From Haliangiales bacterium (GTDB lineage: Bacteria > Myxococcota_A > Polyangia > Haliangiales > Haliangiaceae): a DNA stretch of 21,116 bases. This document shows positions 4,801 to 18,910 of this stretch, piece after piece. Location: the NCBI GenBank assembly GCA_041916575.1, contig JAYRZI010000002.1:1-21116 (forward strand), written 5' to 3'. Both the position numbers and the translations under genes were made by a program. Below the pieces are notes generated by a model. That model was not told the DNA's origin and did not search any database. It saw nothing but the letters and a program-made list of their open reading frames with translations. The first letter of the stretch is position 1. Each line of letters begins with the position of its first letter.

Positions 4801-5390
4801 GCCTGCGCGTCGCGGTGGCGGTGCCGATGGCCGTGTACCAAAACGGCGACGACGCCGTGTTCAACGGCGAGATGCTGCCTGGCCCCAAGTACGCCTTTGG
4901 CGATCTCCAGCTCGCCGCCGACCTGCGCCTGCGCGGCCAGCCAGGAGCGCCGCTGCGCGCGGCGGTCGGCCTGCGCCTTGCCACCCCGACCGGCTCGCGC
5001 TCGCACTTCATGAGCGATAGCCGCTGGGGCGTGGAGCCGCGGGCCTTCGTGGCCAGCACGCGCGGGCCGCTCGAGCTCGGGGCCGAGCTGTCGATGCTCT
5101 TGCGTCGGCGCACCGAGCTGGCCGGGCAGAGCCACGGCAGTGAGCTGCGCTTCATCGGCAGCGCTGGCGTGCGCGTGGCCCAGCGTCGAGTGCTGGTGGG
5201 CGCCGAGCTGGTCGGCGCCACCTCGCTGGTCTCGGACACCGCTACCGGCACACCGATCGAGCTCGGGGTGTCGGCGCGCACCACGCTGGCACACCATGTG
5301 GTGCTCGGCCTCGGCGGCACGCTAGGTCTGGTGCAGGCGGTGGGGACGCCGGACTATCGCTGGATCCTGTCCGCCTCTTGGACGCCGTGA
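3..5390 (+). CDS. Giant surface protein, 5'-partial (no start codon in window, ORF opens at the edge). It has at least 14 tandem ~102-aa bacterial Ig-like (Big_1 / invasin-intimin type) domains, then a MYXO-CTERM-like Cys/Gly-rich hydrophobic Arg-rich segment, then, still in frame, a signal-peptide-like stretch and a ~270-aa C-terminal module with beta-barrel-like amphipathic strands. The stop TGA is at 5388..5390.
   Basis: A single 1795-aa ORF with strong GC3 bias. The unit xGGxQSAxVxTAFAQ(A/P)LxVxVxDAxGNPVPGxxVTFxAPxxGATxxL...TDxxGxAxVxxTAxxxAGxYxVxAxV...F(S/A)LTN recurs at least 14 times. The protein ends ...GSGCQSGAGGGGWLLVGWLLLWAARLRDRR (4422..4511), then SGLSLGIVLGVLGAAGVARA|QSE, then alternating hydrophobic/polar strands to the end. 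All overlapping minus-strand ORFs are Arg/Pro/Ala-rich artefacts. Confidence 0.85.
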   Translation: MTDGSGAASVTATASAVAGSYSVTATVSGLLPASFSLTNTPGSPATIAATGGGAQSAVVTTAFAQALAVRVEDAHGNAVPGVTVTFAAPGSGATASLSSTTAVTDGSGAASVSATASAVAGSYSVTATVSGLLPASFSLTNTPGAPATVAVTGGGTQSAVVTTAFAQALAVRVEDAHGNAVPGVTVTFAAPGSGATASLSSTTAVTDGSGAASVTATASAVAGSYSVTATVSGLLPASFSLTNTPGAPATVSITGGGTQSAVVTTAFAQALAVRVEDAHGNAVPGVTVTFAAPGSGATASLSLTTAVTSGSGAASVTATASAVAGNYSVTATVSGLLPASFSLTNTPGAPATIAATGGGAQSAVVTTAFAQALAVRVEDAHGNAVPGATVTFAAPGSGATASLSSTTAVTDGSGAASVTATASAVAGNYSVTATVSGVTPASFSLTNTPGAPATIAATGGGAQSAVVTTAFAQALAVRVEDAHGNVVPGVTVTFAAPGSGATASLSSTTAVTNGSGAASVTATANATAGSYSVTATVSGLTPASFSLTNTPGAPATIAVVSGGDQRAAIETAFAQPLVVQVLDAHGNPVPGAAVSFTAPGTGATATVSASVTTDAQGRASTAATAGSIAGSYLVSASVTGVLTPATFSLTNDAGGVATLSIVSGHPQSAVVTTAYAAPLVVVVRDHASNPVPGATVTFAAPLGSPTVTLSATSVVTDSNGRAQVVATADTRSGSFQVTAQASAGAPVAFDLTNLAGAPATISALVGGTPQSATVLTGFEQPLAVLVQDAFGNPVPGATVTYTEPGVGASIVLSEITAQTDASGVAQVTGTANGTAGAYLVSAHVAGVLDAAAFALTNLAGAPATVAALGGDEQATEVDTDFAEALEVQVLDAQGNPVPGAVVTFSAATGAVTATLSASTVATDSEGRAQVGAHASTTAGSHQVTAVVVGASSPAVFSLENLPGAPASLVVSPTSSPQQAQVTTAYPQPLALIVLDRFGNPVPQVAITFTAPTSGPSGALDAGTATSDAQGLAAVTITANQLAGAFDVLATVDGVTLPAVFALTNLHGAAHTVSIDGGNMQETIVDTAFAAPLVVRVTDSFGNPVIGEPVTFTAPIAGATSVLATASGTTDSSGRFATTAVAGTVTGAYQVEAVAAGGGSPVEFTLTNLAGAPASISVVGGGGAQSAQVLHPFAQALAVIVRDAFGNPVPGATVRFVASALPGATLSAPDSVTDGEGQASVLAIADRMTGNYQVVATVGALVATFSLTNTASAPGAVVVARGGGQRALATVAYAEPVVFQVLDAYGNPVSGVELLIELPVHGPGAEVVRVSAQSDAAGEVSLELLAKGMVGTFSVSASAPGASSAAMATLTVAPIPTTVTATAPASVPVDRRAPLAISVTGQLGVPTGEVQIYDELGQLVATVALTRGLAEVEVDLSARGQRRFVVRYPAQGSYDGSDSAEVVVTASDDAGTLSGSGCQSGAGGGGWLLVGWLLLWAARLRDRRSGLSLGIVLGVLGAAGVARAQSETRAVNRYHAPAADSEWLAADSLSYGDTFGVALAQTWDYARRPLVVYEDDGTIRSVPVENSLVVHTSAAVALGRGLRVAVAVPMAVYQNGDDAVFNGEMLPGPKYAFGDLQLAADLRLRGQPGAPLRAAVGLRLATPTGSRSHFMSDSRWGVEPRAFVASTRGPLELGAELSMLLRRRTELAGQSHGSELRFIGSAGVRVAQRRVLVGAELVGATSLVSDTATGTPIELGVSARTTLAHHVVLGLGGTLGLVQAVGTPDYRWILSASWTP

Positions 5391-5430: not shown

Positions 5431-6993
5431 CTAGTTGTGGCGCGCGCCAGCAGTCAGGGCCAGCGCCGCGCACTCGCCGAAGGCCACGCAGCGCAGATCG
5501 AGCACGCGCGCCGGCAAGAACACGTTGTTCATCGCCGCCGAGCGCTGGAACGAGCGCACCGGCTGGCCGAAGGCATCGGGCGCCGCGGTGGCCGCGCCCG
5601 GCGTCTCGTTGACGTGCACGAACCCAGCCGAGGGTGGCCACACCAGGCCGCCGCCGAGGTTGTCGTTGTTCGAGTGCTGGTGGCAGCCGCCGCAAGACAT
5701 CGCGGTGGCGCGGTTCATCACGTTGGCCGGGGTCAGCGTGGAGCCCAGCGTGGTCAGGCGCCCTTGCACCGCGATGTTGAGCGCCGGCGTGGCGAACAGG
5801 TTGTAGTCGTTCGAGAACTGGGTCACGTCGCCGGTCGGGCCCTCGATGGCGCCGGTCTGCGAGTCGCTCTGGCCGGCGCCGAAGGCCGGGTTGTCGTCGA
5901 GCGTGAACTTGTTGAGGTCGTTGATGATGAGCTTGTCGACCTGGCTCACGAACCAGGTGGAGAAGGCGTCGCTGCCGGTGGCCGCCGAGAACGCGCCCGG
6001 CCACGGGTTGGCCTTGACGTATTCGGGGCGCAGGAACAAGCGGCCGGTGCTCGAGAGCTGCGTCTTGAACTCGCGCAAGTTCCAGCGCGCCTCGTTGGGG
6101 CCGTTCATGAAGCCGTTGGTGCGAACCTGGCCGCGCACCGCGCCCAGGTTCTGGAAGTGCATCACCGGCTGGGTGGTCACCACCACGCCGTCGGAGTAGG
6201 TCAGGGACACGCCGGTGTAGTAGAACGCGGCCAGCGTGCTGCGCGCGCTCGCCGCCGTCACCGCCGGATCGCTCAGGCCGGCCCACAGATCGGCGATGGG
6301 CTGGCAGCCGGCGGCGCCCAGCGCGGGCCGCGGGTTGGGCAGCGCGGCCTCGAAGATGACCAGCGCGCGCCCGGTCGGCGCTACAGGCAAGGCATCCTTG
6401 CGGCCGTAGATGATGCGGAACTCGCCGCACGTGGTGCCCGCGGCGTCGCGCAGGTCGAGCCGGTTGACCAGCGCGATCGGGTAGAAGTACGCCGGCGAGA
6501 CCGGGGTCAAAAGATCGGTGCCGACCAGAGCCATCGAGCCCTCGTTGCGCGGGCACTGGATCGGGAAGCCGTTGATGAGGCCGTGGCCCGCTCCGTCGAC
6601 CACGTCGTCGCACTGCGGCAGGCTGGTGCCGAGCCCGGTCCCGGCGTTGGTGTTGTGGGTATCCCAGAGCTGGCGCGCCAACACGTTCATCGGGCTCTCT
6701 CCGGGCGCGGTGGTGGGCATGCCGGCGGTGGAGAGCATGGTGGCGAGCGTGCGCCGCAGCGAGAACGTGGACTCACCCGTCGCCGAGCAATCGGTGAGGC
6801 CGGCGACGCCGGTGAGACACGGCTGGAGCACCGAGCTGGCGGTGATGGCCAGCGAGCGCGCCGCGTTGGTCGGGATCGCCGGCGAAGCCTTGGCGGTCAG
6901 CTCCGAGAGCTCGGGCTCCTCGGGAGCCAGGGTGCAGGCGCCGGCCAAGAGCACGGAGCCGAGAACGGGAACCAGGGAGTGAATGTTGCGCAT
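5431..6993 (-). CDS. Predicted lipoprotein of 520 aa with a single CXXCH motif (SCGGCHQH) near the C-terminus. Function unknown; possibly a mono-heme c-type cytochrome-like or redox lipoprotein.
   Basis: The ATG at 6991..6993 (complement) is preceded by GGAAGAAGAGG (a Shine-Dalgarno-like site). The N-terminus MRNIHSLVPVLGSVLLAGAC is a lipoprotein signal peptide with an L-A-G-C lipobox. Amino-acid composition is diverse (N, F, Y, Q, T-rich), whereas the overlapping plus ORF 5437..7065 is an Arg/Gly/Ala artefact. The track ORF extends upstream to 7281, but those 96 residues are Arg/Trp-rich and unlikely to be real. Confidence 0.7.
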   Translation of the reverse strand: MRNIHSLVPVLGSVLLAGACTLAPEEPELSELTAKASPAIPTNAARSLAITASSVLQPCLTGVAGLTDCSATGESTFSLRRTLATMLSTAGMPTTAPGESPMNVLARQLWDTHNTNAGTGLGTSLPQCDDVVDGAGHGLINGFPIQCPRNEGSMALVGTDLLTPVSPAYFYPIALVNRLDLRDAAGTTCGEFRIIYGRKDALPVAPTGRALVIFEAALPNPRPALGAAGCQPIADLWAGLSDPAVTAASARSTLAAFYYTGVSLTYSDGVVVTTQPVMHFQNLGAVRGQVRTNGFMNGPNEARWNLREFKTQLSSTGRLFLRPEYVKANPWPGAFSAATGSDAFSTWFVSQVDKLIINDLNKFTLDDNPAFGAGQSDSQTGAIEGPTGDVTQFSNDYNLFATPALNIAVQGRLTTLGSTLTPANVMNRATAMSCGGCHQHSNNDNLGGGLVWPPSAGFVHVNETPGAATAAPDAFGQPVRSFQRSAAMNNVFLPARVLDLRCVAFGECAALALTAGARHN

Positions 6994-7225
6994 GTACCTC
7001 TTCTTCCAACCCGCAACTGCTGTCGGGTGAGAGTTGCAAGAGCAAGCCACATGCCTCTTCCCTAACTGCAGGAGCCGCCACGACTCGGCGCTCGAGGCTG
7101 GTACGTCGATCTCCCAAAGCGTCACGAGATGGCGTGTTCGCGTGGACCGCCAGGTACCGCCTGCGTGCGCCAGGCTACGCGAACGGCCTCGCCGGTCATC
7201 CAACAGCCACAGCGTCGGCGATCGG

Positions 7226-8893
7226 TCAGGCGGCCACCACTGCCTTGGGCAGCGCGCCGTCGCGACGGGCGCGTAGCGCATCGATCACCATGACGGCGGC
7301 CAGGGCCAGTAGCACTACCGAGACCAGGCCGTTGGTCCAAGGCGGCGTGCCGAAGCTGGCAGAGACGAGCTGGCGCGCTTGCAGGACCAGCGAGGTCACG
7401 GTCACCGCGAACACGCCGAGCATCGGGTAGAACGTGTACCAGGTGCGGCGGCCCTGGCGCTTCATCCACACGGTCACCGCCAAGAGCGACAGCGCGGCCA
7501 GGAGCTGATTGGACGAGCCGAACAAGGTCCAAAACAGCCGGAACGAGCCGCTCTCGGTGGCCAGCAAGAACAAGAGGGGCACGCCGCAAGTAGCGGCGGT
7601 GGCGAGCGCCGCCGAGGTCATCCCGCGCGTGCCGGTGAGCTCTTGCAAGATGTAGCGACCCAGCCGCGTCGCCGAGTCGAGCGTATCGAAGATGAAGGTA
7701 GAGAGCGCCATCGCGCCGAAGGTGGCGGCGACCAGCGGCGCCATGCCAAAGAGCTGGTTGAGGAACGCGCCGATGCCCAGCGCGTACACCGCGCCCGGCG
7801 CCTTGCCGGCGGTGTCGGCCGGCGCGACGATCATGATCGTCGCCAGCGCGATGAGCGCCACGAAGCCCTCGAGCAGCATGGCGCCGTAGCCGATGGGGTG
7901 GCAGTGGCGCTCGCGATCGATCTGCTTGGAGGTGGTGCCCGAGCACACCAGGCCGTGGAAGCCGGAGCACGCGCCGCACGCGATGGTCACGAACAGAAAC
8001 GGAAACAGCGTGCCGCCGGGCGAGGAGAAGCCCAGAAACGCCGGCTGCTTGATCTCGAAGCCGCCGAGGAAGATGCCGAGCGTGCCCACCGCCAGCGCCG
8101 CGTACAGCACGAAGCCACCGAGGTAGCCGCGCGGCTGCATGAGCAGCCACATCGGCGAGATCGAGGCGACGAAGCAGTAGCCGATGATGAGCACCACCCA
8201 CACCTTCCAGCTCGCCAAGAGCACGGTGGAGAGCTCGGTGCCGAGCCACACTGCGCCGAAGGTGGCCGGCACGAAGATCACCGTGAGGAGCCACAGCGGT
8301 GGGTTCCACAGCCGGGTGACCAGGCCCATCACCACCGCCAGCCCCAGGTAGAGCAGGCTCGCCATTGCCACCGCGCCGCCCTGGTTGAAGCGAAAGGTCA
8401 GGCCCGCGGCCTCGGCGTCGCCCGAGACGAAGGTGCCGGCGGTGATATCGACGAAGGCGACGATCACGTAGACCAGCGCCATCCAGATGAACGCCAGGAT
8501 GGCGAGCCAGGCGCGCCGGCCCAGGTTGGCCTTGACCACCTCGGCCACCGTCATCGCGTCGTGCCGCACCGAGGCCACCAGCGTGGTGAAGTCGTGGACC
8601 GCTCCGATGAACACCACCCCCAGGCCGATCCACAAGATCGCCGGCAGCCAGCCGAACTGCTGGCAGGCCAGGATCGGCCCGACGATGGGGCCGGCCGCGG
8701 CGATGGCGCTGAAGTGCTGGCCGAACAGGTAGAACGGCCGGGTCGGGACGAAGTCGATCCCGTCTTGGCGGCGGTGCGCCGGGGTATCCGGGCTATCTCC
8801 GAGCTGGTACTGGCGTGCGACGAAGCCGCCGTAGTACCGGTAGCCCAGGGCCAAAGTCACCAGCACCGCGATCGCGAGCAGCGGCAGGGTCAT
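7226..8893 (-). CDS. cstA: Carbon starvation protein A (CstA family peptide/pyruvate transporter), 555 aa, polytopic membrane protein.
   Basis: Conserved CstA N-terminal block GQHFSAIAAAGPIVGPILACQQFGWLPAILWIGLGVVFIGAVHDF. The internal motif ACGACSGFHGLVCSGTTSKQ is present. There are many TM segments, and the ATG is at 8891..8893 (complement). Confidence 0.9.
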   Translation of the reverse strand: MTLPLLAIAVLVTLALGYRYYGGFVARQYQLGDSPDTPAHRRQDGIDFVPTRPFYLFGQHFSAIAAAGPIVGPILACQQFGWLPAILWIGLGVVFIGAVHDFTTLVASVRHDAMTVAEVVKANLGRRAWLAILAFIWMALVYVIVAFVDITAGTFVSGDAEAAGLTFRFNQGGAVAMASLLYLGLAVVMGLVTRLWNPPLWLLTVIFVPATFGAVWLGTELSTVLLASWKVWVVLIIGYCFVASISPMWLLMQPRGYLGGFVLYAALAVGTLGIFLGGFEIKQPAFLGFSSPGGTLFPFLFVTIACGACSGFHGLVCSGTTSKQIDRERHCHPIGYGAMLLEGFVALIALATIMIVAPADTAGKAPGAVYALGIGAFLNQLFGMAPLVAATFGAMALSTFIFDTLDSATRLGRYILQELTGTRGMTSAALATAATCGVPLLFLLATESGSFRLFWTLFGSSNQLLAALSLLAVTVWMKRQGRRTWYTFYPMLGVFAVTVTSLVLQARQLVSASFGTPPWTNGLVSVVLLALAAVMVIDALRARRDGALPKAVVAA

Positions 8894-9002: not shown

Positions 9003-10187
9003 ATGGCTTCTGACGACGAAGACTTCGCATCGATGTTCGCTGCGTTCGAGAGCACCTCCGGTGCCAAGGAGCGCCGCCGGCCGCGCGTGGGCGACCTGGT
9101 CTCCGGCACGATCATCTCGATCGGCAAGGACGCGGTGTTCGTCGATCTCGGAGGCAAGGCAGAGGGCACCCTGGATCGCGGGCAGGTCGAGGATCGCGAG
9201 GGCAAGCTCACCGTCGCCATCGGTGACAAGATTGAAGCGCGAGTGGGGCAGGATGAAGGCGGCGTCCTGTCGCTGCGCATCAAGGTCACGCGCGGGCCCG
9301 AGGCCAAGGCCGAGCTGGTGAGCGCCCAGGAGATGGGCCTGCCGGTCGAAGGCCTGGTCACCGAGATGGTCAAGGGCGGCCTGTCCGTCGACGTGGCCGG
9401 CGTGCGCGGCTTCTGCCCGGCCTCGCAGATCGACAACCGCTTCGTCGAGGACCTGTCCGGCTTCGTCGGCCAACGCCTGACCTTCCGCATCACCCGCTAC
9501 GAGCCGGGGGGCCGCGGCAACCTGGTGCTGTCGCGCCGCGTGCTGCTGGATGAAGAGAAGGAGAAGCTGGCCGCCAAGACCCGCGAGCACCTCAAGGTGG
9601 GCGCGGTGATGCGCGGCAAGGTCGTGAGCTTCCGTCCGTTCGGCGCCTTCGTCGACCTGGGCGGCATCGAGGGCATGCTGCACGTGTCCGAGCTCGGCTT
9701 CTCCCGCGTCGAGAAGCCCGAGGACGTGCTGGCCCTGGGCCAGGAGGTCACCGTGTCGGTGCTCAAGATCGAGCCCGGCGACAAGGGCCAGCGCATCGCG
9801 CTCTCGCTCAAGGCGTTGGCCACCGATCCGTGGGCGAGCGCCGGTCAGGCCCTGACCGACGGCGCCCGCGTCAAGGGCAAGATCACGCGCATGCAGCAGT
9901 TCGGCGTGTTCGTCGAGGTGGCGCCCGGCATCGAAGGCCTGGTCCACATCAGCGAGCTCGGCGCCGGCCGCCGCATCAACCACCCGCGCGAGGTGGTGAG
10001 CGAGGGCCAGGAGGTCGAGGTCCAGGTCATCGGCCTCGATCCCGAGCGCCGCCGCGTCTCGCTGTCGATCGCGGCGGTCGCTGCCTCTGGCGGCGCCACC
10101 GCCGAAGACGTGGCCGCGGCCACGCAGCGCCCGTCGGGCGGCGCTGGGCTCGGCACCCTCGCCGATCTGCTCAAGCTCAAGAAGTAG
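9003..10187 (+). CDS. RNA-binding protein with four tandem S1 domains (ribosomal protein S1-like paralogue), 394 aa.
   Basis: The S1 OB-fold signature (G.V.G.V..i..fGaFVdl.g.eGllHiSel) occurs four times, around aa 30-95, 110-175, 195-260 and 280-345. The protein has a highly acidic N-terminus. Confidence 0.85.
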   Translation: MASDDEDFASMFAAFESTSGAKERRRPRVGDLVSGTIISIGKDAVFVDLGGKAEGTLDRGQVEDREGKLTVAIGDKIEARVGQDEGGVLSLRIKVTRGPEAKAELVSAQEMGLPVEGLVTEMVKGGLSVDVAGVRGFCPASQIDNRFVEDLSGFVGQRLTFRITRYEPGGRGNLVLSRRVLLDEEKEKLAAKTREHLKVGAVMRGKVVSFRPFGAFVDLGGIEGMLHVSELGFSRVEKPEDVLALGQEVTVSVLKIEPGDKGQRIALSLKALATDPWASAGQALTDGARVKGKITRMQQFGVFVEVAPGIEGLVHISELGAGRRINHPREVVSEGQEVEVQVIGLDPERRRVSLSIAAVAASGGATAEDVAAATQRPSGGAGLGTLADLLKLKK

Positions 10188-10245
10188 CGGCCAAGCGCGC
10201 GCGGCGCGCGGCCACGAGCGCGGTCATCGCCTGCGCCCGCCCCAG

Positions 10246-10602
10246 TCAGGGCTTGGCCACGGTGAAGCCGGTGATGCAGCGAAACGACTTCTGGTTGTAC
10301 TCGCTGGTCACGTACTCGAGCGTGACCTGATCGCCGTTGCGATAGGCCGCATACAGGATCTGGATGCCGGTCTCCGACAGCTCGCGCCCTTTGCACTGCA
10401 AGCCGCCCCAGCGGTAGTTGGTGGTGGCCTTGTCGAGCGCCAGCCAGATCGCGCCGTGGAAGAGGCGATAGCTGGAGTCACCCGGCTCGAGCAACATGAG
10501 CTGCGCCACCGACGAGGTGGGCGTGGTGTCCGCGTGGGCAGGCGCGGCAGCGGCGAGCAGGGCCAGCATCCCCGCGGCGACGGAAGAAGAGCGGAAGGAC
10601 AT
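10246..10602 (-). CDS. Small secreted hypothetical protein of 118 aa, with a cleavable signal peptide and two Cys in the mature ~94-aa part.
   Basis: MSFRSSSVAAGMLALLAAAAPAHA|DTT is a signal peptide with an AxA site. The composition is non-GC-biased (Y, N, K, F, Q-rich), unlike antisense artefacts. The ATG is at 10600..10602 (complement). Confidence 0.55.
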   Translation of the reverse strand: MSFRSSSVAAGMLALLAAAAPAHADTTPTSSVAQLMLLEPGDSSYRLFHGAIWLALDKATTNYRWGGLQCKGRELSETGIQILYAAYRNGDQVTLEYVTSEYNQKSFRCITGFTVAKP

Positions 10603-10737
10603 GGCGAAATGATACCCAAGTGTCCGCGGCGGTAGGCATTTTGCGCCGTCAAAGGTCGCAAGCCTCCGCCGGTTCTTGCCGTTATCTGCCCGGAACTGCT
10701 CACAGATTCACACATCGCGCTGCGAATCGTCCGCGCC

Positions 10738-12252
10738 ATGGCAAGCTCGCTGTCATGTCGCGCCCTCCTGCAGACACATACCAGCAGCATGGAACGAAGT
10801 GATGCAGAGCTGCTAGCGGCCTCGCGCCGCGGCGAGCGGGCCGCCTTCGCCCTGCTGGTCGAGCGCTATCAGGGCGTGGTCTGCGCGGTGTCGTATAGCG
10901 GCACCGGCGACCGCTCGCTGAGCGAAGACGTGGCGCAGGATACTTTCCTCGCCGCGTGGCGCCAGCTCGATCAGCTCCGCGAGGTCGAGCGCTTGCGAGC
11001 GTGGCTGTGCGGGATCGCCAGAAACCTCGCCCACAAGGCGCGGCGCCGGCGCGCTCGCGAGCTGCCAGTGGCCGATGAGCTCGAGGCCGGAGCCGGTGCC
11101 GATCTGTTCGAACAGGTCAGCGACAGGCAAGCCGAGCGCGTGGTGCGTGAAGCGCTCCATCGCGTGCCCGAGACCTACCGGGAGGCGCTGGTGCTCTACT
11201 ACCACGAGCAACGCTCGGCCAAAGAGGTCGCGCAGGCGCTGGGGATCAGTGAAGCGGCGGTGCTGCAGCGCCTCGCTCGCGGTCGCCAATCGCTGGCGCA
11301 AGGCGTGTCCGCGCTCGTCGAGCGCGCGCTCGCCAGCCCGCTGCCACGCCGCAGCTTGGTCGTCGGCGTCCTGGCCGGGCTATCCGCCATCACTGCGTCC
11401 CATGCGTCCGCTGCCACCACCACGAGTCCGCATGGAGGAATGTCGATGTTGAAGCTAGCTCTTGCCGCCGCAGCCCTCACCGCCGCCGGCGCCACCGCCT
11501 ACGTTACTACCAGCCGCGACGGCAGCCCCGCCGCGGCCCCCAGCAACCCCGTCGCTGTGCTGCAACCTGCGGCGAGCCTCGGCGCCAGCACCCCGCCGGC
11601 GCAAAGACTGACCACGACCCCGGTCCGCAGCGCCGCCGCCGGCTCCAGCTCCACCGCCGGCGGAAAAGAGGAGGGCTGCGGCACCTGCGATGGTTCGGCC
11701 GAGCCCGAATCGCAGCCGCCGGTCGATAGCGCCACCGTGGCGCGCCTGGGCCTGCACGAGGGCCCCTCGCGCGGCGCCGCCGATGCGCCGGTGGTCATCA
11801 CCATGTTCACCGACATGCAGTGCAAGTACTGCGGCGAGTCGCTCGGCACCATGGATCAGCTCCTCGAGGAGCTCGATGGCAAGGTGCGCCTGGTGATCAA
11901 GCAGTTCCCGGTGCGCACCGGCTCCGAGCTAGCGGCGCAGGCCGCCTTCGCCGCCGAGGCGCAGGGCAAGTTCTGGGACCTCTACGACCTGATGATGGCC
12001 AACCAAGATCGGCTCTCGCAAGAGGGCTTGATCGAGCTCGCTCGTCGCGCCGAGCTCGATGTCGACGCGTTTGGGGCCGCCCTGGAAAAGGGCACCTACC
12101 GCAGCTCGGTGGAGGAGGTGCGCAAGGTCGCCAAGGCTCTGAAGGTCATGGGCACGCCGGCCTTCTTCATCAACGGCCGCCACATCGCTGGCGCCCGCTC
12201 GGCCGAGGTGTTCCGCGAGCACATCCAGGCCGCGCTCGCCGAGCGCCGCTAG
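10738..12252 (+). CDS. ECF (sigma-70 family group IV) RNA polymerase sigma factor read in one frame with a hydrophobic anchor and a C-terminal DsbA-like thioredoxin-fold domain (CXXC = CKYC). An alternative start is the ATG at 10789 (MERSDAELL). An internal strong SD+ATG at 11434..11448 could also give a stand-alone signal-anchored DsbA-like protein.
   Basis: Sigma region 2 (DVAQDTFLAAWRQLDQL...WLCGIARNLAHKARRRR) and region 4 (ETYREALVLYYHEQRSAKEVAQALGISEAAVLQRLARGRQSL) are recognisable. There is no stop codon through the hydrophobic segments SLVVGVLAGLSAITAS and MLKLALAAAALTAAGATAYV. The C-terminal 160 aa match the DsbA-family pattern (VVITMFTDMQCKYCG...KVRLVIKQFP...AQGKFWDLYDLMMANQ...GTPAFFINGRHIAGA). 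Confidence 0.8.
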   Translation: MASSLSCRALLQTHTSSMERSDAELLAASRRGERAAFALLVERYQGVVCAVSYSGTGDRSLSEDVAQDTFLAAWRQLDQLREVERLRAWLCGIARNLAHKARRRRARELPVADELEAGAGADLFEQVSDRQAERVVREALHRVPETYREALVLYYHEQRSAKEVAQALGISEAAVLQRLARGRQSLAQGVSALVERALASPLPRRSLVVGVLAGLSAITASHASAATTTSPHGGMSMLKLALAAAALTAAGATAYVTTSRDGSPAAAPSNPVAVLQPAASLGASTPPAQRLTTTPVRSAAAGSSSTAGGKEEGCGTCDGSAEPESQPPVDSATVARLGLHEGPSRGAADAPVVITMFTDMQCKYCGESLGTMDQLLEELDGKVRLVIKQFPVRTGSELAAQAAFAAEAQGKFWDLYDLMMANQDRLSQEGLIELARRAELDVDAFGAALEKGTYRSSVEEVRKVAKALKVMGTPAFFINGRHIAGARSAEVFREHIQAALAERR

Positions 12253-12360
12253 CCGCGCCGCGACCCGCTGGGGACACCGAGCGCAACTTGCCAGCCTCTG
12301 CCGCCGGCAGTGGCTGTCATCACCTGAGGGTGCCCAGCGCGCGCACCTCGGCGCATTTGA

Positions 12361-12387
12361 TGGAACTCTGGAGCTTGCCGTCCCGTA
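12361..12387 (+). promoter_or_regulatory. Candidate ECF-sigma-type promoter (TGGAAC-N17-CGTA) ending 10 nt upstream of the TonB-dependent receptor start codon.
   Basis: tGGAACtctggagcttgccgtccCGTAgagccatccATG. The -35 AAC and -10 CGT spacing matches the ECF consensus class (GGAAC ... CGT). It lies in the 144-bp gap after the sigma-DsbA gene. Confidence 0.3.
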
Positions 12388-12396
12388 GAGCCATCC

Positions 12397-14658
12397 ATGG
12401 TGCCGCTGCTTTCCATCCGCTCGCCTCGCGTCGCGAGCCTCTTGCTCTCGCTCGTCGGCGCGGCCGCCGTCGCTGGGACCGCGCAGGCGGCGCCGCTGAC
12501 CGCGACCATCGTCGATGCTGCCACCGGCGCTCCCATCGATACCGCCTCGGCGCTGCTCGAGCGCGGCGAAGGTGCCGGTGTCGATGAGGCAGGCAAGCTC
12601 GTCCTCGAGCTACCGCCCGGCGTGCGGCAGGTCACGATCATCGCCCCCGGGTACGCCACGCGAGTGGTGGCCGTGCCGACCTCCGCCACGCTCGCCGCGG
12701 GCTGGGTGATCCAGCTCACGGCCGAGGGCGGCGCCGAGATCATCGAGGTCACGGGCGCCGGTCCCGAGCGCACCCGCCCGGTCTCCTACGAGCTGACGGC
12801 GGAGGACATCCGCACCTTGCCCGGGGCCGGCAACGACGTGCTGCGTGCAGTGCAGAGCCTGCCCGGCGTGGCGCGCATCCCCTACAACTTCGGCGGCCTG
12901 GTGCTGCGTGGCCAGGCCCCGCGCGACACCAGCGTGTTCCTCGATGGCATCGAGGTGCCGCTAGCCTTTCACTTCGGCGGCGTGACCTCGTTCTATCCGG
13001 CCACCCTGCTCGAGGACCTCGAGGTCACCAGCGGCGGCTTCGACACAGGCTGGGGCCGCACCCAGGGCGGCGTGATCTCGCTCGCCACCCGCGAGGCCCG
13101 CACCGATGCCTGGCGCGTCGGCGGCGAGGTCGGCCTCTTGCACTCGGGCGCCTTCGCTGAAGGTCCGGTGCCCGGCGGTGGCGGCGTGATGTTCGGCGTG
13201 CGCCGCTCGTACCTCGACGCGCTGGTGCGGCCCTTCGTCGAGGGCTCGCAGCCCTTGCCCAGCTACCTCGACGGCCAGCTCCGCGCCTCGTGGGGCGATC
13301 CGCGCCGCCTGGGGCGCATCATCCCGCAGGTCTTTGCCTCGGTGGATCGCATCACCAGCGAAGAGCTGTCGTTCACCTCGGCCTTCGTGCGCGCCGGCCT
13401 CACCTATCGCAAGAGCTGGGGCCCCACCCACCTCGAGGTGGTGCCGTGGGCCGGCTACAACACGCTCTTGCTCGAGAACGACGAGCGCGATTCGTCAGGC
13501 GACCCGATGGAAGAGGAGCCCTCGGGGCCGGTGCGCTTTCGCCGGCCGGTGCGCATGATCGGCGCGCGCGCCGACCTCCTGCACCAGCGCTCGTGGGGCC
13601 ACCTGCGCGCCGGCCTCGATGCCCAGGGCGGCCACCTCGGCCAGCTCGAGATCAACATCGAAGACGTGGACACCAAGGCCACCACCTCGCTGTGGTGGCG
13701 CGACCTCGCCGGCTACGCCGAGGTGCGCCTGGCGCCGTGGGGCGGCCGCGTCGCCGTCAAGCCCGGCGTGCGCGTGGAGAGCTACGGCGCCACCGACGAG
13801 CTCGTGGTGGATCCTCGCATCAACCTGCAGCAGCGCCTCAGCGAGCGCTGGAGCCTGCGCCAGGCTCTGGGCCGCTATCACCAGCCCCCGACTCCGATGG
13901 AGCTGGAGAAGACCCTGGGCAACCCCGACCTCGATAGCGCCTATACCGATCAAGCCTCGCTCAGCGTGGATGCACGGCTGCCGTACGGCCTCACCGCCTC
14001 GGCCACCGCCTTCTATCACCGCGGCCGCAAACAACCCACCGCTGCCGTGCGCCCCGAGCCCGATCCCGAAGTCCCCGAACCCAACACCGGCGGCCTGGGC
14101 CCGATCTTCGCCGAGCTCCTCGAAGAACAGTTCGGATCGTTCGACTACCGTGAGGCTACCGGCCAGGCGCGCACCCGCGGCCTCGAGCTATCGCTCAAGC
14201 GCCGCGCCGGCCGCTACTACGGCTACGCCGCGTACTCCCTGGCCTGGGCCGAACGCAAAGACGATCCCGCGCGCTTCTCCGGCTGGCGCCCCTACCAGCT
14301 CGACCAGCGCCACCACCTCACCCTGATCGGCTCGATCTCGTTCACCAAGTGGCGCTTCGGCGGCCGCATGTCGCTCGTCTCCGGCAACCCCTACAGCCCG
14401 GTCACCGGCGTCGACGAAAACGGCGAAGCCATGGTGAGCGAGTGGGGCGGCCGCCTCCCCGTCTTCTTCGCCGTCGACGTGCGCGCCGATCGCGCCTGGA
14501 AGCGCAACTGGGGCGAAGTCATCCTCTACTTCGACATCCAGAACGCCACCAACCGCCGCAACATCGAAGGCCGCGAGCTCGACGGCAACCGCGAAACCGA
14601 CATCCGCGGCCTGCCCATCCTGCCGTTCATCGGCGTCGAGATCGTCCCGCGCGGATAG
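12397..14658 (+). CDS. TonB-dependent outer-membrane receptor-like protein of 753 aa. It has an N-terminal carboxypeptidase-regulatory-like (CarbopepD_reg) domain, a plug domain and a C-terminal beta-barrel.
   Basis: Signal peptide MVPLLSIRSPRVASLLLSLVGAAAVAGTAQA. The ATIVDAATGAPI beta-sandwich motif is present. Plug motifs are DVLRAVQSLPGV, GGLVLRGQAPRDTSVFLDGIEV and EDLEVTSGGFDTGWGRTQGGVISLATRE. Amphipathic beta-strands run to the C-terminus. Confidence 0.8.
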   Translation: MVPLLSIRSPRVASLLLSLVGAAAVAGTAQAAPLTATIVDAATGAPIDTASALLERGEGAGVDEAGKLVLELPPGVRQVTIIAPGYATRVVAVPTSATLAAGWVIQLTAEGGAEIIEVTGAGPERTRPVSYELTAEDIRTLPGAGNDVLRAVQSLPGVARIPYNFGGLVLRGQAPRDTSVFLDGIEVPLAFHFGGVTSFYPATLLEDLEVTSGGFDTGWGRTQGGVISLATREARTDAWRVGGEVGLLHSGAFAEGPVPGGGGVMFGVRRSYLDALVRPFVEGSQPLPSYLDGQLRASWGDPRRLGRIIPQVFASVDRITSEELSFTSAFVRAGLTYRKSWGPTHLEVVPWAGYNTLLLENDERDSSGDPMEEEPSGPVRFRRPVRMIGARADLLHQRSWGHLRAGLDAQGGHLGQLEINIEDVDTKATTSLWWRDLAGYAEVRLAPWGGRVAVKPGVRVESYGATDELVVDPRINLQQRLSERWSLRQALGRYHQPPTPMELEKTLGNPDLDSAYTDQASLSVDARLPYGLTASATAFYHRGRKQPTAAVRPEPDPEVPEPNTGGLGPIFAELLEEQFGSFDYREATGQARTRGLELSLKRRAGRYYGYAAYSLAWAERKDDPARFSGWRPYQLDQRHHLTLIGSISFTKWRFGGRMSLVSGNPYSPVTGVDENGEAMVSEWGGRLPVFFAVDVRADRAWKRNWGEVILYFDIQNATNRRNIEGRELDGNRETDIRGLPILPFIGVEIVPRG

Positions 14659-14695: not shown

Positions 14696-17662
14696 TCAGT
14701 CGTCGTCGCCGTCCTCGTCGTTGTGGCCAGGATCGTTGTCGTAGAGCTGCTCGGGCGGAACCTCTGGCGGCTCGAAGCCATCTGGCCAGCGCGTGGTCTC
14801 GTCGAAGCGCGCCGCGGGGTGATCTAGGTAGGGCCGGTACTCTTCGGGCGGCGTCATGAGCATGGCTCCTTCGAGCATGGCTCCTCGAAGATCTGCCCCT
14901 ATCAAGTTGGCGTCGCGGAGATCAGCAAGGTGGAGGTTGGCCTCTTGGAGGTTGGTTTCTTGTAAGTTGGCGGCTTGGAGATTGGCGTGTTGGAGATTGG
15001 CGTGTTGGAGATTGGCGTGTTGGAGCTTGGCGTGTTGGAGCTTGGCGGCTTGGAGCTTGGCGGCTTGGAGGTTGGTTTTTCTGAGGTCGGCGCTGTCGAG
15101 GTTCGCGAGTGTAAGGTTGGCGTATTGGAGGTCGGCCTCTTGGAGGTTGGCGTATTGGAGGTCGGCCTCTTGGAGGTTGGTGTATTGGAGGTCGGCTTCT
15201 TGGAGGCTGACCCCTCGGAGGTCGGCTTCTTGGAGGTTAGCCTCTTGCAGGTTGGATCCCGAGAAGTCGGCGCTGACCAAATTGGATCGGGCGAGCTGTG
15301 CCTTGGGGTGCGTGCCACCTGGTGACATGACGGCTGCGGGCAAGCCGTGAAGTAAGAAGCTGCAGAGCATGGACATGAGCCTTTGGGGATCCCTCGCGGT
15401 GACGCCCGAAGATCCTGCGGTATAGCTGCCGATGGCCAGCGCTGCCTCGCGCAGGTACAGCCGTTCATCTTCGCGTAGGGTCGGCGCCGGTACGGCGGAC
15501 GGTCCTCCGAGTTTCTGCAGCGATTCATCATTGAAGGTGTGCTCGGCCCAGCGTGCCAGCTTGCCTCGATCTTCATCGGTCCATACCCCCGTGGCGGTCT
15601 GTGCCGCGCCCTGGTTGACGAGTTGCATCAGAAACTCGAAAGCGCGATCTTCGGTCCCGAGCAGTCGGGCACCTAGCAAGCGCGCCGGCGTCTTGTGCCA
15701 CTCCGCCTCGCTGCCACGCACGATGCGCAACAGCTCTTGCGACCAGTAGCGCGCCACCAGGAACTCGCGAAACGATTGGTGGCCAAATAGAATGGTGTGA
15801 TCGCCCGATTGCAGGTTGGCCTGCAGTGCCAGCACCAGGCCAAGTTGGATGAGCGCCATCATCTTTGGGTCCAACTTCAACTCGTTTTTCAAGAAGTGCG
15901 CGACATCGCTCTCGCTCAGCACCTGCTGGGCCTGCTCTTGCCTCAGCGCCTCCCAAGCCACGCGCCCCATCAGCCACAACATGGCATCCATCGGGGTGGC
16001 GCTTCGCTTGATGGTGGCGCTATGGCGCAGTACCTCAAGTAGGCTCTGCGAGGCCTCACGGATCGGCCGGTGCTGCTCGCTATCTCCGTCGGCCTTGCCG
16101 TTCGCGAGCTGGCGAAAGAACTGCTCGTACAAGAGCGCCTTGGAGGTCGCGCCTTCGTCACCCGAGTGCTTGGCCCAGGTGAAGGCGATCATGAATAGCA
16201 GGATCGGCGTAGTCGCCAGCTCGGCGAGTCCGCGCGGCTCAAGCTGCTCCCTCGTGAGCGAGGCACTCTCAGCCTGCGTCTGGGTGCCATGCCACCACTT
16301 CGCTAGCCACTCATCGATCTGTGGCGCCTGAAAAGGCAGGAGCCGAACCTCCTGCACGTGCTTGCCCAACTCCTGGGGCAGCACGCCCGGCCGGGTGAAC
16401 ACCACGAAGCGGTGCCGCTCGGTGGTCTTGTCGCCGAGCTTCTGAAACAGCGTGCTCAGCTCCGTTTGGCCCAGCACCACCTCATCCAGCCCATCGAGCA
16501 GGCACAGAAAGCGCTGTTCGCGCTCGGGCCAGGCGAAGGCGGCATCGTCTACTCCTGCCGAGTGCCCCGCTTGCTCCGCGGTGCGCTTGAGCGCTCGGCG
16601 CAGCGTCTCGCCCAGGTCCACCCGCTCCGAGGAAAAATCCTCGGCACAGCGAACGTAAGCTGGGCGCCAAAGCTCGGGGGCGCGCTGCGCCGAGCCGAGA
16701 AACTCACGCGCTAGGTCCCATGCCAGCTTGCGTGCGCTCAGGGACTTGCCGCTGCCGAAATCCGCGGTGACCACGATCACCTTGGGCCCGCCCGAAGCCG
16801 CAAGGAGCTCGCGCAGCAGCGCCAGGATGGGCTTGCCGTCCTTGTGCGCTTCTTTCCGCCGCCCTTCTCCACGCTCCGCCACCCACGCCAGCGGCTCTAC
16901 ATACTGGTCGTCCAACGCCAGAAACGGCAGCACCCCATCGCCCTGCTTCTCCCATTCCTCGCGTCGCCCATTGCCAAACACGTGCCGCCCACCCCAGGTA
17001 GCCAGCTCGCGCAGCAGCAGGTCGCGCACCAGCAGCTCGCGGTAGCGCTCCATTCCCTCCAGGTAGTCGGCGATCGCCGGCGCCGCGGCCAGGCCGCGCA
17101 GATACTCCAGCAGGAAGAAGCGCTCGAACTCGCGCGCCGCAGTGGCCGTCACCTCGAACGGCGGCACCTCTCCCTGCTCGGCGATCGCGAGCTTTGCATC
17201 AGTGAACGCCCACCACAGCGCGCGGTAGTAGGGCGAGGACAGCGGAGCTTGCAGCGAGCCTACGAACTCCAGCTCTTTGTCGGAGCCAGCCCCCAGCTCG
17301 ATGAGCTTGGGCGCGGCGAGGTTCATGCGTAGCTCGATCTCTTCTTTGCGCGCCTTCTCCTCCTTGCTGCGCCAGCGCTGCCAGGCCGAGGCCAGCGGTG
17401 CGCTCAACCCGTGCAGCTCCTGGTGCCGCCCCAGCGCTCGCCCGAACGACCGCGTCACCAGCGCCAGATGGAGCGCCGCCGCCTCCGGCGCCTTGGCCTT
17501 GCGCAACCCCAACAGGCCGCTCCCGGTCTCGAGCAGCCCTCGCAGCCCCTCCAGGTCCTTCTTGTCGAACGCGCTATCATTCGCCCCCTCCCAGACCTTC
17601 ATCCCGGCGCCCAGCAGCCTGCTCAATACACTAACTCCCATCGCGATCGCCGCAGGTTCCAC
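14696..17662 (-). CDS. STAND NTPase of the NACHT family (988 aa from a GTG at 17662; an alternative ATG at 17641 gives 981 aa). It has a ~290-aa N-terminal domain of unknown function, a NACHT module, a helical linker, about 29 C-terminal pentapeptide repeats and an acidic tail.
   Basis: Walker A KVIVVTADFGSGKSLSARK. Walker B / NACHT signature QRFLCLLDGLDEVV. The C-terminus is ...SNLQEANLQEADLRGVSLQEADLQYTNLQEADLQYANL...HANLQHANLQ...ADLRGAMLEGAML, which are A(D/N)LxxA(N/D)L pentapeptide repeats, followed by DNDPGHNDEDGDDD. Confidence 0.85.
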   Translation of the reverse strand: MEPAAIAMGVSVLSRLLGAGMKVWEGANDSAFDKKDLEGLRGLLETGSGLLGLRKAKAPEAAALHLALVTRSFGRALGRHQELHGLSAPLASAWQRWRSKEEKARKEEIELRMNLAAPKLIELGAGSDKELEFVGSLQAPLSSPYYRALWWAFTDAKLAIAEQGEVPPFEVTATAAREFERFFLLEYLRGLAAAPAIADYLEGMERYRELLVRDLLLRELATWGGRHVFGNGRREEWEKQGDGVLPFLALDDQYVEPLAWVAERGEGRRKEAHKDGKPILALLRELLAASGGPKVIVVTADFGSGKSLSARKLAWDLAREFLGSAQRAPELWRPAYVRCAEDFSSERVDLGETLRRALKRTAEQAGHSAGVDDAAFAWPEREQRFLCLLDGLDEVVLGQTELSTLFQKLGDKTTERHRFVVFTRPGVLPQELGKHVQEVRLLPFQAPQIDEWLAKWWHGTQTQAESASLTREQLEPRGLAELATTPILLFMIAFTWAKHSGDEGATSKALLYEQFFRQLANGKADGDSEQHRPIREASQSLLEVLRHSATIKRSATPMDAMLWLMGRVAWEALRQEQAQQVLSESDVAHFLKNELKLDPKMMALIQLGLVLALQANLQSGDHTILFGHQSFREFLVARYWSQELLRIVRGSEAEWHKTPARLLGARLLGTEDRAFEFLMQLVNQGAAQTATGVWTDEDRGKLARWAEHTFNDESLQKLGGPSAVPAPTLREDERLYLREAALAIGSYTAGSSGVTARDPQRLMSMLCSFLLHGLPAAVMSPGGTHPKAQLARSNLVSADFSGSNLQEANLQEADLRGVSLQEADLQYTNLQEADLQYANLQEADLQYANLTLANLDSADLRKTNLQAAKLQAAKLQHAKLQHANLQHANLQHANLQAANLQETNLQEANLHLADLRDANLIGADLRGAMLEGAMLMTPPEEYRPYLDHPAARFDETTRWPDGFEPPEVPPEQLYDNDPGHNDEDGDDD
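14900..15260. repeat. Tandem 15-nt (and 30-nt) periodic DNA repeat that encodes the pentapeptide repeats of the NACHT protein. Examples are ttggagattggcgtg x3, ttggagcttggcgtg, ttggagcttggcggc x2, and a 30-nt unit ttggaggtcggcctcttggaggttggcgta x3.
   Basis: Exact or near-exact consecutive 15-mers at 14975..15079 and 30-mers at 15125..15214. The plus-strand ORFs 14856..15350 and 14975..15325 are artefacts of this periodicity. Confidence 0.9.
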
Positions 17663-17829
17663 GCCAGACCTCCTGTGCGCACGAGCCTACCTGAGCTTCA
17701 AAGCTGCCCGCCACCTCCGCCGGATATCAAACGCCGACTCGCGCTCTTCCAGCGCGCGCGTTCTTTCCTGCCTCTCACTCCCGATCTCCTTCTCCCCAAA
17801 AACAAAAACTCAGGGTTCTGGTACTCGCA

Positions 17830-18910
17830 GGGGCTGTGGGCGGTGTGGGGAAGCGCGCCATAGCCGAAGGCATGCCCTGGCTCATGCTCGCTCAAGCGCT
17901 TCTCCAAGGGGCTGTGGGGTGCTCCGCGAACCTCCTCGATGATAGGCCCGCTTGCGCTCTTGCCTGCGCGGACACTCCATCAGCCCCGCCACCGTCCATC
18001 AGTCCCGCTCGTGGGCTCCGAACTGCCATTCGTGATCTCCGCCGAGAATCAAAAAACTGATCTTCGTTGTGATTGGCAATGTGAATCGTTGATGGTTTGA
18101 GTGTGAATGTGTAGAGTGTTGACATGCGCAGAGCGCCAACTCGCCGTCGCGCGGCTCGCACTACGAGTCCCCTTCAGCTCACGCTGGATAGCGCGCGCAA
18201 GCCTGCCGGCCGCGGCGGCTGGCGGCCCAACGCCGGACGTCCCCGTGGACGCCACACGTGTAGCCATGAGGCTCGCAAGCGCTTCGCCTCACGCGTACCG
18301 CTACACATCACGCTGCGCATGGCCCAAGACGTCCCCAGCCTGCGCCGCAGCGAGCCCGTCGCCCTCGTCCGCGAAGCCATCGCGGCTAGCCACACCGAGG
18401 GCTTTCGCATCCTCGAGTACGCCGTGCTCGCCAATCACGTTCACCTCCTCGTCGAGGCCGATAGCCAGGATGCGCTCGCCGGCGCCATGCGCACCCTGAA
18501 CGTGCGGCTCGCCAAGCGCCTCAATCGTTGCTTCGGCCGTCGCGGTGCATTGCTTGCCGAGCGCTACCACGCGCGACGGTTGCAGGCGCCGCGCGAGGTC
18601 CGCAATGTTCTGCGCTACGTATTGCTCAACGCGCGCCACCACGCCGCCGAACGCGGCACTCGCCTCGCTCGTGGCTGGGTAGATCCGGCCTCCAGCGCCG
18701 CCTGGTTCGAAGGCTGGCAACACCCGCATCATCTCGATCGCGGTGCCTACTGGATCGTGCAGCTCCTGCGCCACCCGCGGCCCACGCAACCCGCAAGAAC
18801 CTGGCTCTGCTCCGTGGGCTGGCGCCGCCACGGCTTGCTCGCGATCGATGACATTCCCGGCGACACTCCGTGAAGGCGCTCATGGTCGGGGGCTATGGAC
18901 GGTGGCGGGG
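17830..18910. repeat. G-rich REP-like motif GGGGCTRTGGRCGGTG(K)GGGG present three times in the same orientation, flanking the RAYT gene on both sides. Sites are 17830..17850, 17907..17923 (shorter) and 18888..18910.
   Basis: ggggctgtgggcggtgtgggg, ggggctgtggggtgctc and gggggctatggacggtggcgggg. Downstream 18955..19020 also carries reiterated ctcgagccccgc / ttcgagccccgc / ttcgagcccccggcgggggcctc units, with a GCCCCC-ggc-GGGGGC hairpin. Confidence 0.35.
18124..18873 (+). CDS. IS200/IS605-family Y1 (HUH) transposase-like protein of 249 aa, of the REP-associated tyrosine transposase (RAYT) type. It stands alone, with no TnpB partner. The true start may be a non-ATG codon downstream of 18124.
   Basis: N-terminal GRGGWRPNAGRPRGRH...PLHITLRMAQDVPSLRR block. 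HUH motif ANHVHLLVE. Tyr motif VRNVLRYVLLNARHH (RY..N). Confidence 0.75.
   Translation: MRRAPTRRRAARTTSPLQLTLDSARKPAGRGGWRPNAGRPRGRHTCSHEARKRFASRVPLHITLRMAQDVPSLRRSEPVALVREAIAASHTEGFRILEYAVLANHVHLLVEADSQDALAGAMRTLNVRLAKRLNRCFGRRGALLAERYHARRLQAPREVRNVLRYVLLNARHHAAERGTRLARGWVDPASSAAWFEGWQHPHHLDRGAYWIVQLLRHPRPTQPARTWLCSVGWRRHGLLAIDDIPGDTP

Follow-up and report, generated by a model that had tools for sequence, protein, structure and literature searches.

A Myxococcota family of NACHT proteins with a helical N-terminal domain of its own and a fast-diverging pentapeptide-repeat domain: a candidate NLR-like switch

A 21,116-nucleotide stretch of a Haliangiales bacterium genome (contig JAYRZI010000002.1 of assembly GCA_041916575.1, positions 1 to 21,116; the whole stretch is referred to as the window) carries on its minus strand a gene for a 988-residue NACHT/pentapeptide-repeat protein (14696..17662). 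By analogy with characterised NLR-related proteins, we propose that this protein may act as a single-polypeptide NLR-like switch with a conflict-related role, a reading to which we give about an even chance; a defence or cell-death role would be its most likely function. Bacterial NLR-related proteins are established anti-phage sensors, and to our knowledge every characterised one has leucine-rich repeats (LRR), tetratricopeptide repeats (TPR), HEAT repeats or a short C-terminal region. The NLR-like layout with a pentapeptide sensor is already catalogued and is not categorically new. Two features are modestly new, namely an N-terminal domain that is not in Pfam and is confined to Myxococcota, and the combination of a conserved chassis with a fast-changing repeat surface. 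The value of the protein is that of a testable candidate, not of an architectural surprise. With a single gene, an intact NACHT module, a repeat surface that differs between near-identical orthologues and natural effector swaps, the family offers a clean case for asking what a rigid, flat-faced solenoid sensor recognises.

Overall architecture

The open reading frame (ORF) is intact and forms a single gene, running from a GTG start at 17662-17660 to a stop codon at 14696-14698; all features of the protein given below lie on the minus strand. The Shine-Dalgarno sequence AGGAGG, read from the sequence on the same strand, is located 6 nt 5' of the GTG start (17669..17674), and this start agrees with the MEP/MDP N-termini of the homologues. 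Residues 1-783 are 97-100% covered by homologues. The full-length AlphaFold2 (AF2) model has a predicted local distance difference test score (pLDDT) of 83.9 and a predicted template modelling score (pTM) of 0.79.

The NACHT module

The NACHT NTPase module is complete and conserved. Its nucleotide-binding domain spans residues 291-460 (16283..16792), in which the Pfam NACHT model (PF05729) covers residues 295-458 with a marginal score of 27.9 bits against a cut-off of 26.7 (E 2.4e-6); relatives reach up to 43 bits. A Foldseek search with the AF2 model retrieved NOD2 (5irm, E 3.9e-12), NLRP3 and NLRC4 at E values of 4e-12 to 1e-9, and the template modelling (TM) scores to these structures are low (0.25-0.34) because of the multi-domain geometry. 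Residue invariance was read from an alignment of 44 full-length homologues. The Walker A motif ADFGSGKS (residues 300-307, 16742..16765; family consensus [AG]DFGxGKS) contains the invariant residues F302, G303, G305, K306 and S307, and D390, G391, L392, D393 and E394 are invariant in the Walker B motif FLCLLDGLDE (residues 385-394, 16481..16510). The D[GAS]hDE signature separates NACHT proteins from other STANDs (Kibby et al., bioRxiv 10.1101/2022.07.19.500537), and the invariance of D390 to E394 indicates that this signature is present and under constraint. The Walker motifs are not degenerate, and an earlier note on this DNA, which had placed the protein among the NACHT STAND NTPases, is borne out in this respect by both the alignment and the structural matches.

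Downstream of Walker B, R424 in the segment VVFTRPG is invariant and P425 nearly so. The region of helical domain 1, winged-helix domain and helical domain 2 (HD1-WHD-HD2) together with a cap, as delimited on the AF2 model, spans residues 461-787 (15302..16282). It includes TPILL (residues 485-489), with P486, L488 and L489 invariant, and FGHQSFREFL (residues 626-635), with F626, G627, H628, F631 and E633 invariant. From established knowledge of NLRs, we take R424 to be the sensor-1 arginine after strand 4 and H628 to be the histidine of the WHD. Upstream of the nucleotide-binding domain, the pre-NACHT segment (residues 216-290, 16793..17017) forms a β-hairpin and a helix, contains the motifs W-G-RHVFGN and PFxxLxxxYVEP and has four invariant residues, H227, F229, L250 and V255. 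We assign residues ~220-290 to the NACHT module because they are kept in relatives that lack the N-terminal domain (P0045, P0053 and P0234); these CHAT-fused and other N-terminal variants retain only profile positions ~205-281.

The N-terminal domain

The variable N-terminal domain, which is family-specific and all-helical, comprises only residues 1 to ~215 (17018..17662), with helix α1 at residues 3-26. The earlier note had left the whole N-terminal ~290 residues unassigned; the boundary has to be moved, and the lack of an assignment stands, since Pfam gave no match for the domain at E<=1 in the 31 members scanned and a PDB sequence search gave none for the N-terminal region. Both the length and the sequence of the first ~290 residues are conserved in ~85 homologues. 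In the N-terminal model (pLDDT 80.7), the chain is purely helical as far as residue ~240, and a small hairpin and one more helix come after that; the pLDDT of residues 1-120 is only 50-70 in the AF2 model of the full-length protein. When 1.84 billion representative proteins were searched with a profile, the domain was found in only 184 clusters, nearly all of which carry it at the N-terminus of proteins of 850-1050 residues.

The conserved residues of the domain (F73, G74, A76, P140, Y146, L149, W150, F153, F179, E180 and F183) are mostly aromatic or hydrophobic and make up no obvious catalytic constellation. Because no conserved residues look catalytic, the output of the domain is probably non-enzymatic; if the domain is an output module, it would add a new non-enzymatic effector type. 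In 27 of the 31 N-terminal domains, no 19-mer is more hydrophobic than that of helix α1 (Kyte-Doolittle 1.1-1.96); the helix carries a near-invariant lysine, and most members have no 19-residue window clearly above the transmembrane threshold. We considered whether the domain is a divergent NNH3 (one of the NACHT N-terminal helical domains) and rejected this, as hhalign gave a probability of at most 0.3% against a single sequence and 0.1% against a 12-sequence alignment. The NNH Pfam families are absent from the 31 N-terminal domains at E<=1, with NNH4 checked by the Pfam scan alone; the NNH3 model (PF22735) was in the searched library and detects the Scytonema protein BAZ19442.1.

Exchange of the N-terminal slot and family distribution

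CHAT is a caspase-like protease typical of conflict systems. It occupies the N-terminal slot in the relatives P0041, P0042, P0045, P0048 and P0060, and a protein kinase does so in P0099, the NACHT-repeat body that follows being otherwise homologous; the close relatives with CHAT or a kinase are 44-47% identical over NACHT and repeats. The repeat domain is retained through all of these swaps. The presence of CHAT or a kinase in relatives marks the N-terminal slot as the output position, which supports the order effector-NACHT-sensor that the earlier note had assumed. In P0098 and P0241, CHAT replaces only the first ~45 residues of the N-terminal domain, and profile positions from ~41/52 onward are kept. 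This partial swap points to the α1-α2 hairpin as a separable output element.

Members of the family were found in Myxococcus, Pyxidicoccus, Archangium, Polyangium, Chondromyces, Byssovorax, Nannocystis and Haliangium-like metagenome-assembled genomes (MAGs). The collections searched contain no exact copy of the window protein; its closest relatives are metagenomic, with 89% (P0001) and 71% identity, and the best genome-derived match has 48%. The number of paralogues varies between genomes: Chondromyces apiculatus has two members in tandem (locus L011, 154-3102 and 3291-6116), and Polyangium fumosum and MAG-83 have two copies each at separate loci. The closest genome-derived orthologue (locus L037, the same as L001) is annotated as two overlapping ORFs, 9226-10086 and 10001-12388, which encode a 286-residue N-terminal domain and a 795-residue NACHT-repeat protein. 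This split is either a frameshift (a pseudogene or a split gene) or a long-read assembly error.

The pentapeptide-repeat domain

Residues 788-937 (14852..15301) consist of 30 contiguous, uninterrupted pentads of the form A(D/N)LXX, counted in the pentad register, and are predicted to form a right-handed quadrilateral β-helix of ~7.5 turns. Pfam detects the pentapeptide repeats (PF00805) at E 3.8e-39, and the underlying DNA has a 15-bp period with 21.7 copies. In the AF2 model, the β-helix has a pLDDT of ~98 with one strand per pentad, and Foldseek matches the repeat domain to solved pentapeptide-repeat structures (E 3.5e-14). The β-helix and the count of about 29 repeats given in the earlier note therefore need only a change by one pentad. 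The domain is followed by a C-terminal cap motif (FDETTRWPDGFEPP, with the conserved pattern DxxTxWPxGFDP), an acidic tail of net charge -14 and the stop codon (14696..14851). The number of pentads ranges from <10 to 49 across the family.

The net charge of the repeat domain is -9 in the window protein, and the family has a median of -3.5 and a range of -27 to +5. With this median and with values reaching +5, an acidic DNA-like surface is not conserved, and on these values we reject DNA mimicry as a property of the whole family. The scores of the NCBIfam models for MfpA (44.2 bits against a cut-off of 360), Qnr (42 against 240) and the HetL equivalog are all far below their cut-offs. DNA mimicry of the Qnr/MfpA kind, which the earlier note had raised, is thus not upheld for the family, and the comparison with these proteins lends no support to a dimeric form of it. 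Diversification by a diversity-generating retroelement was also rejected: no copy of the repeat-domain DNA was found in the window outside the gene, and there is no reverse transcriptase among the window genes.

Divergence between close orthologues

Regional divergence was measured against P0001, the orthologue with 89% identity overall. Identity to P0001 is 92-98% in the N-terminal domain and over most of the NACHT module, whereas it is ~53% in the repeat domain; residues 801-950 are 52-68% identical and contain indels of 5 and 15 residues. A second hot patch lies in the WHD region at residues 541-605 (15848..16042), in which residues 551-600 are 54% identical. The synonymous divergence (dS) is ~1.05 in the repeat domain and 1.11 in the WHD patch, compared with 0.09-0.35 in all other regions. 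The ratio of nonsynonymous to synonymous divergence (dN/dS) is ~0.3 in the divergent segments, where dS is saturating. High dS together with this ratio is better read as a sign of mosaic recombination or of turnover of the repeats; positive selection acting on the repeat surface was considered, and these values do not demonstrate it. The gene diverges faster than its syntenic neighbour, with 89% against 96% identity and 48% against 76%. Judged from these sequence comparisons, the repeat domain may be a fast-turning-over recognition surface, as the concentration of the divergence suggests.

Comparison with known systems

Bacterial NACHT proteins fall into 25 clades, and bNACHT proteins of diverse kinds confer protection from phage (Kibby et al., bioRxiv 10.1101/2022.07.19.500537). 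Clade 9 combines NNH3 or NNH4 (~220 residues) with NACHT and Pentapeptide (Table S1 of that work) and has members in cyanobacteria, Vibrio, Nitrospirae, Runella and Solidesulfovibrio; the Supplementary Discussion places pentapeptide repeats among the 'antigen-receptor-type' NLR sensor repeats. The earlier note had set the pentapeptide sensor apart from the usual repeats; clade 9 shows that the arrangement is not new. Our literature search found no paper characterising a pentapeptide-sensor STAND. The window protein has the same three-part layout and sizes as the clade-9 proteins, namely an N-terminal helical domain, NACHT and C-terminal pentapeptides. However, its N-terminal domain is neither NNH3 nor NNH4 (NNH4 by Pfam scan only), and its family is found in Myxococcota only, whereas the clade-9 list has no myxobacterial member. 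The Scytonema protein BAZ19442.1, which contains Pfam NNH3 (PF22735), NACHT and Pentapeptide, is collinear with residues 285-838 of the window protein, from the P-loop through the linker and into the repeats (E 1e-16, 22% identity). This likeness to clade 9 is one pairwise alignment, and actinobacterial NACHTs score similarly. The alignment indicates that the window family shares the NACHT-linker-repeat chassis with BAZ19442.1 and has an N-terminal domain of its own.

The characterised anti-phage proteins bNACHT01, 02, 11, 12 and 25 (Kibby et al. 2023 and follow-ups) are likewise NACHT proteins encoded by one gene that has no partner in an operon; their Walker A and B motifs are intact and their C-terminal region varies, and bNACHT02 and bNACHT11 have the same MDP/MEP amphipathic-helix N-terminus as the window protein. 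They differ from it in having short SNaCT C-termini or LRR/HEAT repeats and no β-helix, and in coming from enterobacteria; in addition, the window protein is unmatched by PADLOC models. The animal NLRs NOD2, NLRP3 and NLRC4 share the fold of nucleotide-binding domain (NBD)-HD1-WHD-HD2 and the effector/NACHT/repeat-sensor logic. However, their identity to the window protein is 12-16%, their sensor is made of LRRs instead of a β-helix, and the window N-terminal domain is neither a CARD nor a PYD. The pentapeptide proteins MfpA, Qnr, HetL and Np275/276 have the same A(D/N)LXX repeats and predicted quadrilateral β-helix, but they stand alone, while the repeats of the window protein are one domain of a 988-residue STAND protein. 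In plant coiled-coil (CC) NLR resistosomes and in fungal HeLo/HELL NLR partners, an N-terminal helix inserts into the membrane. The window N-terminal domain resembles these in being helical and non-enzymatic, with a hydrophobic first helix that carries a conserved lysine and is the module replaced in enzymatic variants; this likeness is a functional analogy only.

Proposed mechanism and alternative explanations

We propose a switch cycle for the protein, modelled on characterised NLR, bNACHT and Avs proteins. In the resting state, the protein would be a monomer with nucleotide bound and kept inactive by autoinhibition. A ligand would bind to the exposed faces of the β-helix, possibly together with the variable WHD patch; the most likely ligands are proteins of phage or other foreign origin and host proteins that have been perturbed. 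Ligand binding might then release the autoinhibition and lead to nucleotide-dependent oligomerisation, by which the N-terminal helical domains would be clustered to deliver the output. The output may be membrane attack led by the hydrophobic, lysine-bearing helix α1, or recruitment of an effector encoded elsewhere, and the role of the cycle would be abortive infection or programmed cell death. Clustering of flanking ORFs from 36 loci revealed no conserved partner gene, only kinases being recurrent. The lack of a conserved partner gene across 27-36 loci implies that one and the same polypeptide must contain both the sensor and the output. The putative sensor is the repeat domain, as it is kept through the N-terminal swaps, is the fastest-changing part of the protein and varies in its number of pentads.

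A more specific version, which we regard as distinctly improbable, makes the N-terminal bundle, led by α1, a new bacterial membrane-permeabilising executioner unleashed by oligomerisation and the hypervariable β-helix a bait surface, possibly nucleic-acid-like, for phage proteins. If true, the protein would be the functional equivalent in prokaryotes of plant CC-NLR resistosomes and fungal HeLo domains, and the β-helix would be the first pentapeptide-repeat domain with a defined role in sensing a ligand in immunity.

A number of observations weigh against a conflict-related switch. The neighbourhoods of the family are not defence islands, and arguments from context for a defence role are weak: among 150 neighbours from 27 loci, no Pfam family recurs with more than 3 members, and PADLOC found in these neighbours only generic kinase or sigma-54 domains (3 and 2 members). 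A defence-island-like context in other genomes, a point raised in the earlier note, is therefore missing from the 27 loci, and no PADLOC family, including bNACHT and Avs, matches the protein itself at E<=1. Local synteny with housekeeping genes is partly kept, as could also be expected of a regulator particular to the lineage. All 33 confident genome loci belong to Myxococcota, and a family of one phylum fits a lineage-specific regulator as well. The family has no phage relatives and no members on plasmids, the plasmid matches being distant NACHTs only. In the clade-9 rows, no entry is tagged as a tested gene (bioRxiv 10.1101/2022.07.19.500537). The same side of the balance takes the dN/dS value and the saturating dS of the divergent segments. 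As for the output, membrane attack by α1 is possible on hydropathy and analogy only, and the α1 region has a low pLDDT.

Many of these points would suit a non-immune, lineage-specific signalling STAND with a role in, for example, development, envelope stress or social behaviour of myxobacteria and none in phage defence or cell death, in which the NACHT module gates a protein-protein interaction; we consider this rather unlikely. Such a protein would explain the restriction to Myxococcota, the synteny with TonB-dependent receptor and RAYT-like genes that is partly kept across 48-49%-identical orthologues, the lack of defence-island context and PADLOC matches and the N-terminal domain without a recognisable enzymatic effector, and non-immune bacterial STANDs such as AfsR do exist. 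However, the protein has no DNA-binding or other regulatory output domain, and the N-terminal slot of several relatives is occupied by CHAT, typical of conflict systems. Further points against it are the hypervariability of the repeat surface in orthologues that are otherwise nearly identical, a rate of evolution of the gene above that of its neighbours, and a variable number of paralogues, with tandem copies in Chondromyces.

The other alternatives concern which end of the protein does what. A variant of the proposed switch, which we regard as unlikely, treats the N-terminal domain as an NNH-type adaptor or spacer only, which would not itself act on the membrane and would recruit an effector from elsewhere in the genome. 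P0098 and P0241 keep most of the N-terminal domain behind the added CHAT, and EAD10+NNH3+NACHT proteins are built alike (Kibby et al., bioRxiv 10.1101/2022.07.19.500537); the mainly aromatic or hydrophobic, and so structural, conserved residues and the lack in most members of a 19-residue window clearly above the transmembrane threshold would also suit an adaptor. However, no conserved neighbour gene offers a possible partner, no adjacent ORF has a matching N-terminal motif, and CHAT replaces exactly the α1-α2 hairpin, which fits the hairpin being the output element. The pentapeptide proteins MfpA and Qnr are DNA mimics, and it is conceivable, though very improbable, that the polarity is reversed, with the N-terminal domain as the sensor and the β-helix as an effector, which on exposure would sequester gyrase or other DNA-binding proteins by mimicking B-DNA or serving as a scaffold. 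The negative charge of the repeat domain (-9) followed by that of the acidic tail (-14) would agree with this, as would the effector position of pentapeptide repeats in some vWA-MoxR systems (Kaur et al. 2020). Similarity to the DNA mimics is weak in sequence, the MfpA and Qnr models scoring 42-44 bits against cut-offs of 240-360. Reversal is further opposed by the swaps, in which the N-terminal and not the C-terminal slot is exchanged for CHAT or a kinase while the repeats stay, and by the family charge (median -3.5, up to +5), which leaves no conserved acidic surface. One would expect conservation of an effector surface, yet the repeats are the most variable part.

Genomic neighbourhood

The NACHT gene is divergently transcribed from a RAYT/IS200-like Y1 transposase gene on the plus strand (18124..18873), described here as context only. 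It matches Pfam Y1_Tnp at 27.8 bits against a cut-off of 23 and NCBIfam REP_Tyr_transpos (NF047646) at E 1.2e-13 with 51 bits, under the cut-off of 80, and its translation contains visible HUH (NHVHLLV) and tyrosine (RYVLLN) motifs. The earlier note's call of a RAYT-like neighbour holds. Flanking repetitive extragenic palindromic (REP) repeats were not found around this gene. A RAYT-like Y1 gene also lies divergently upstream of the 49%-identical orthologue P0004 (L042/L043, 6213-6947), and the two Y1 proteins are 39% identical. The recurrence of this adjacency at a 49%-identical orthologue indicates an old linkage, not recent mobility. A gene of the 23S_rRNA_IVP type (four-helix-bundle, Avd-like) lies between the Y1 and NACHT genes in L042/L043 (7513-7833); such an ORF is absent from the window, and a related one lies near the L017 paralogue.

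On the other side, a convergent TonB-dependent-receptor gene adjoins the NACHT gene in the window, in L041 and in L001. In the window this receptor (12397-14658, plus strand) has a Plug domain and a β-barrel by Pfam, and no NCBIfam model matches it. Its identity to the L001 receptor is 75.6%, compared with only 48% for the NACHT orthologue next to that receptor, and it serves as an internal rate control. With receptor synteny in three genomes, a recurring RAYT adjacency and no recurrent or defence-specific family in the survey of 150 neighbours at 27 loci, the accessory-like context described in the earlier note does not hold. Some family loci lie beside conflict genes, such as an AHH toxin with Imm11 and Imm49, Uma2 and EAD1-trypsin, which counts in favour of a conflict-related role; others lie beside housekeeping genes for succinate dehydrogenase, ABC transporters, EF-G and starch enzymes. 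An NLR/Bell pair using a bacterial amyloid signalling sequence (BASS) was rejected, as the first 32 residues had no counterpart in ORFs within 4 kb at 35 loci and the window; the scan gave one weak match, due to a mis-assigned N-terminus.

Base composition and other genes of the window

The window has ~70% G+C and a Gram-negative gene content, and the names of homologues point to Myxococcota. The NACHT gene has 64.6% GC compared with ~70% in its neighbours, and a GC content at third codon positions (GC3) of 0.79 compared with ~0.90. GC3 is below that of the flanks in 17 of 20 family loci, where the flank genes had been picked for high GC3. The 'AT-rich islands' of the earlier note reduce to a single ~150-bp patch of 47-50% GC at 18000-18150, in a divergent NACHT/Y1 intergenic region of otherwise 62-75% GC. 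This patch is probably the promoter region common to the NACHT and Y1 genes. Promoter and terminator scans gave nothing beyond shuffled expectation, and a sigma-70 consensus was not found.

Three further genes of the window are recorded here. A 504-residue ORF (10738-12252, plus strand) combines an extracytoplasmic function (ECF)-type sigma-70 factor (regions 2 and 4, residues 40-186) with a C-terminal DsbA/thioredoxin-like domain (residues 342-497), and this sigma-thioredoxin fusion is unusual. A 616-residue ORF on the minus strand (5431-7281) has a GC3 of 0.91 and a strong coding signal with no Pfam or NCBIfam match, and shares 56 nt with the beginning of the CstA gene (7226-8893). ORF 3-5390 on the plus strand, cut at its 5' end, encodes a giant surface protein with Big_1, invasin-D3 and CarboxypepD_reg domains. 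Within it, positions 1-1830 of the window consist of six tandem 306-bp repeats, the first five of which are 95-97% identical at the DNA level, and this near-identity suggests recent expansion or concerted evolution.

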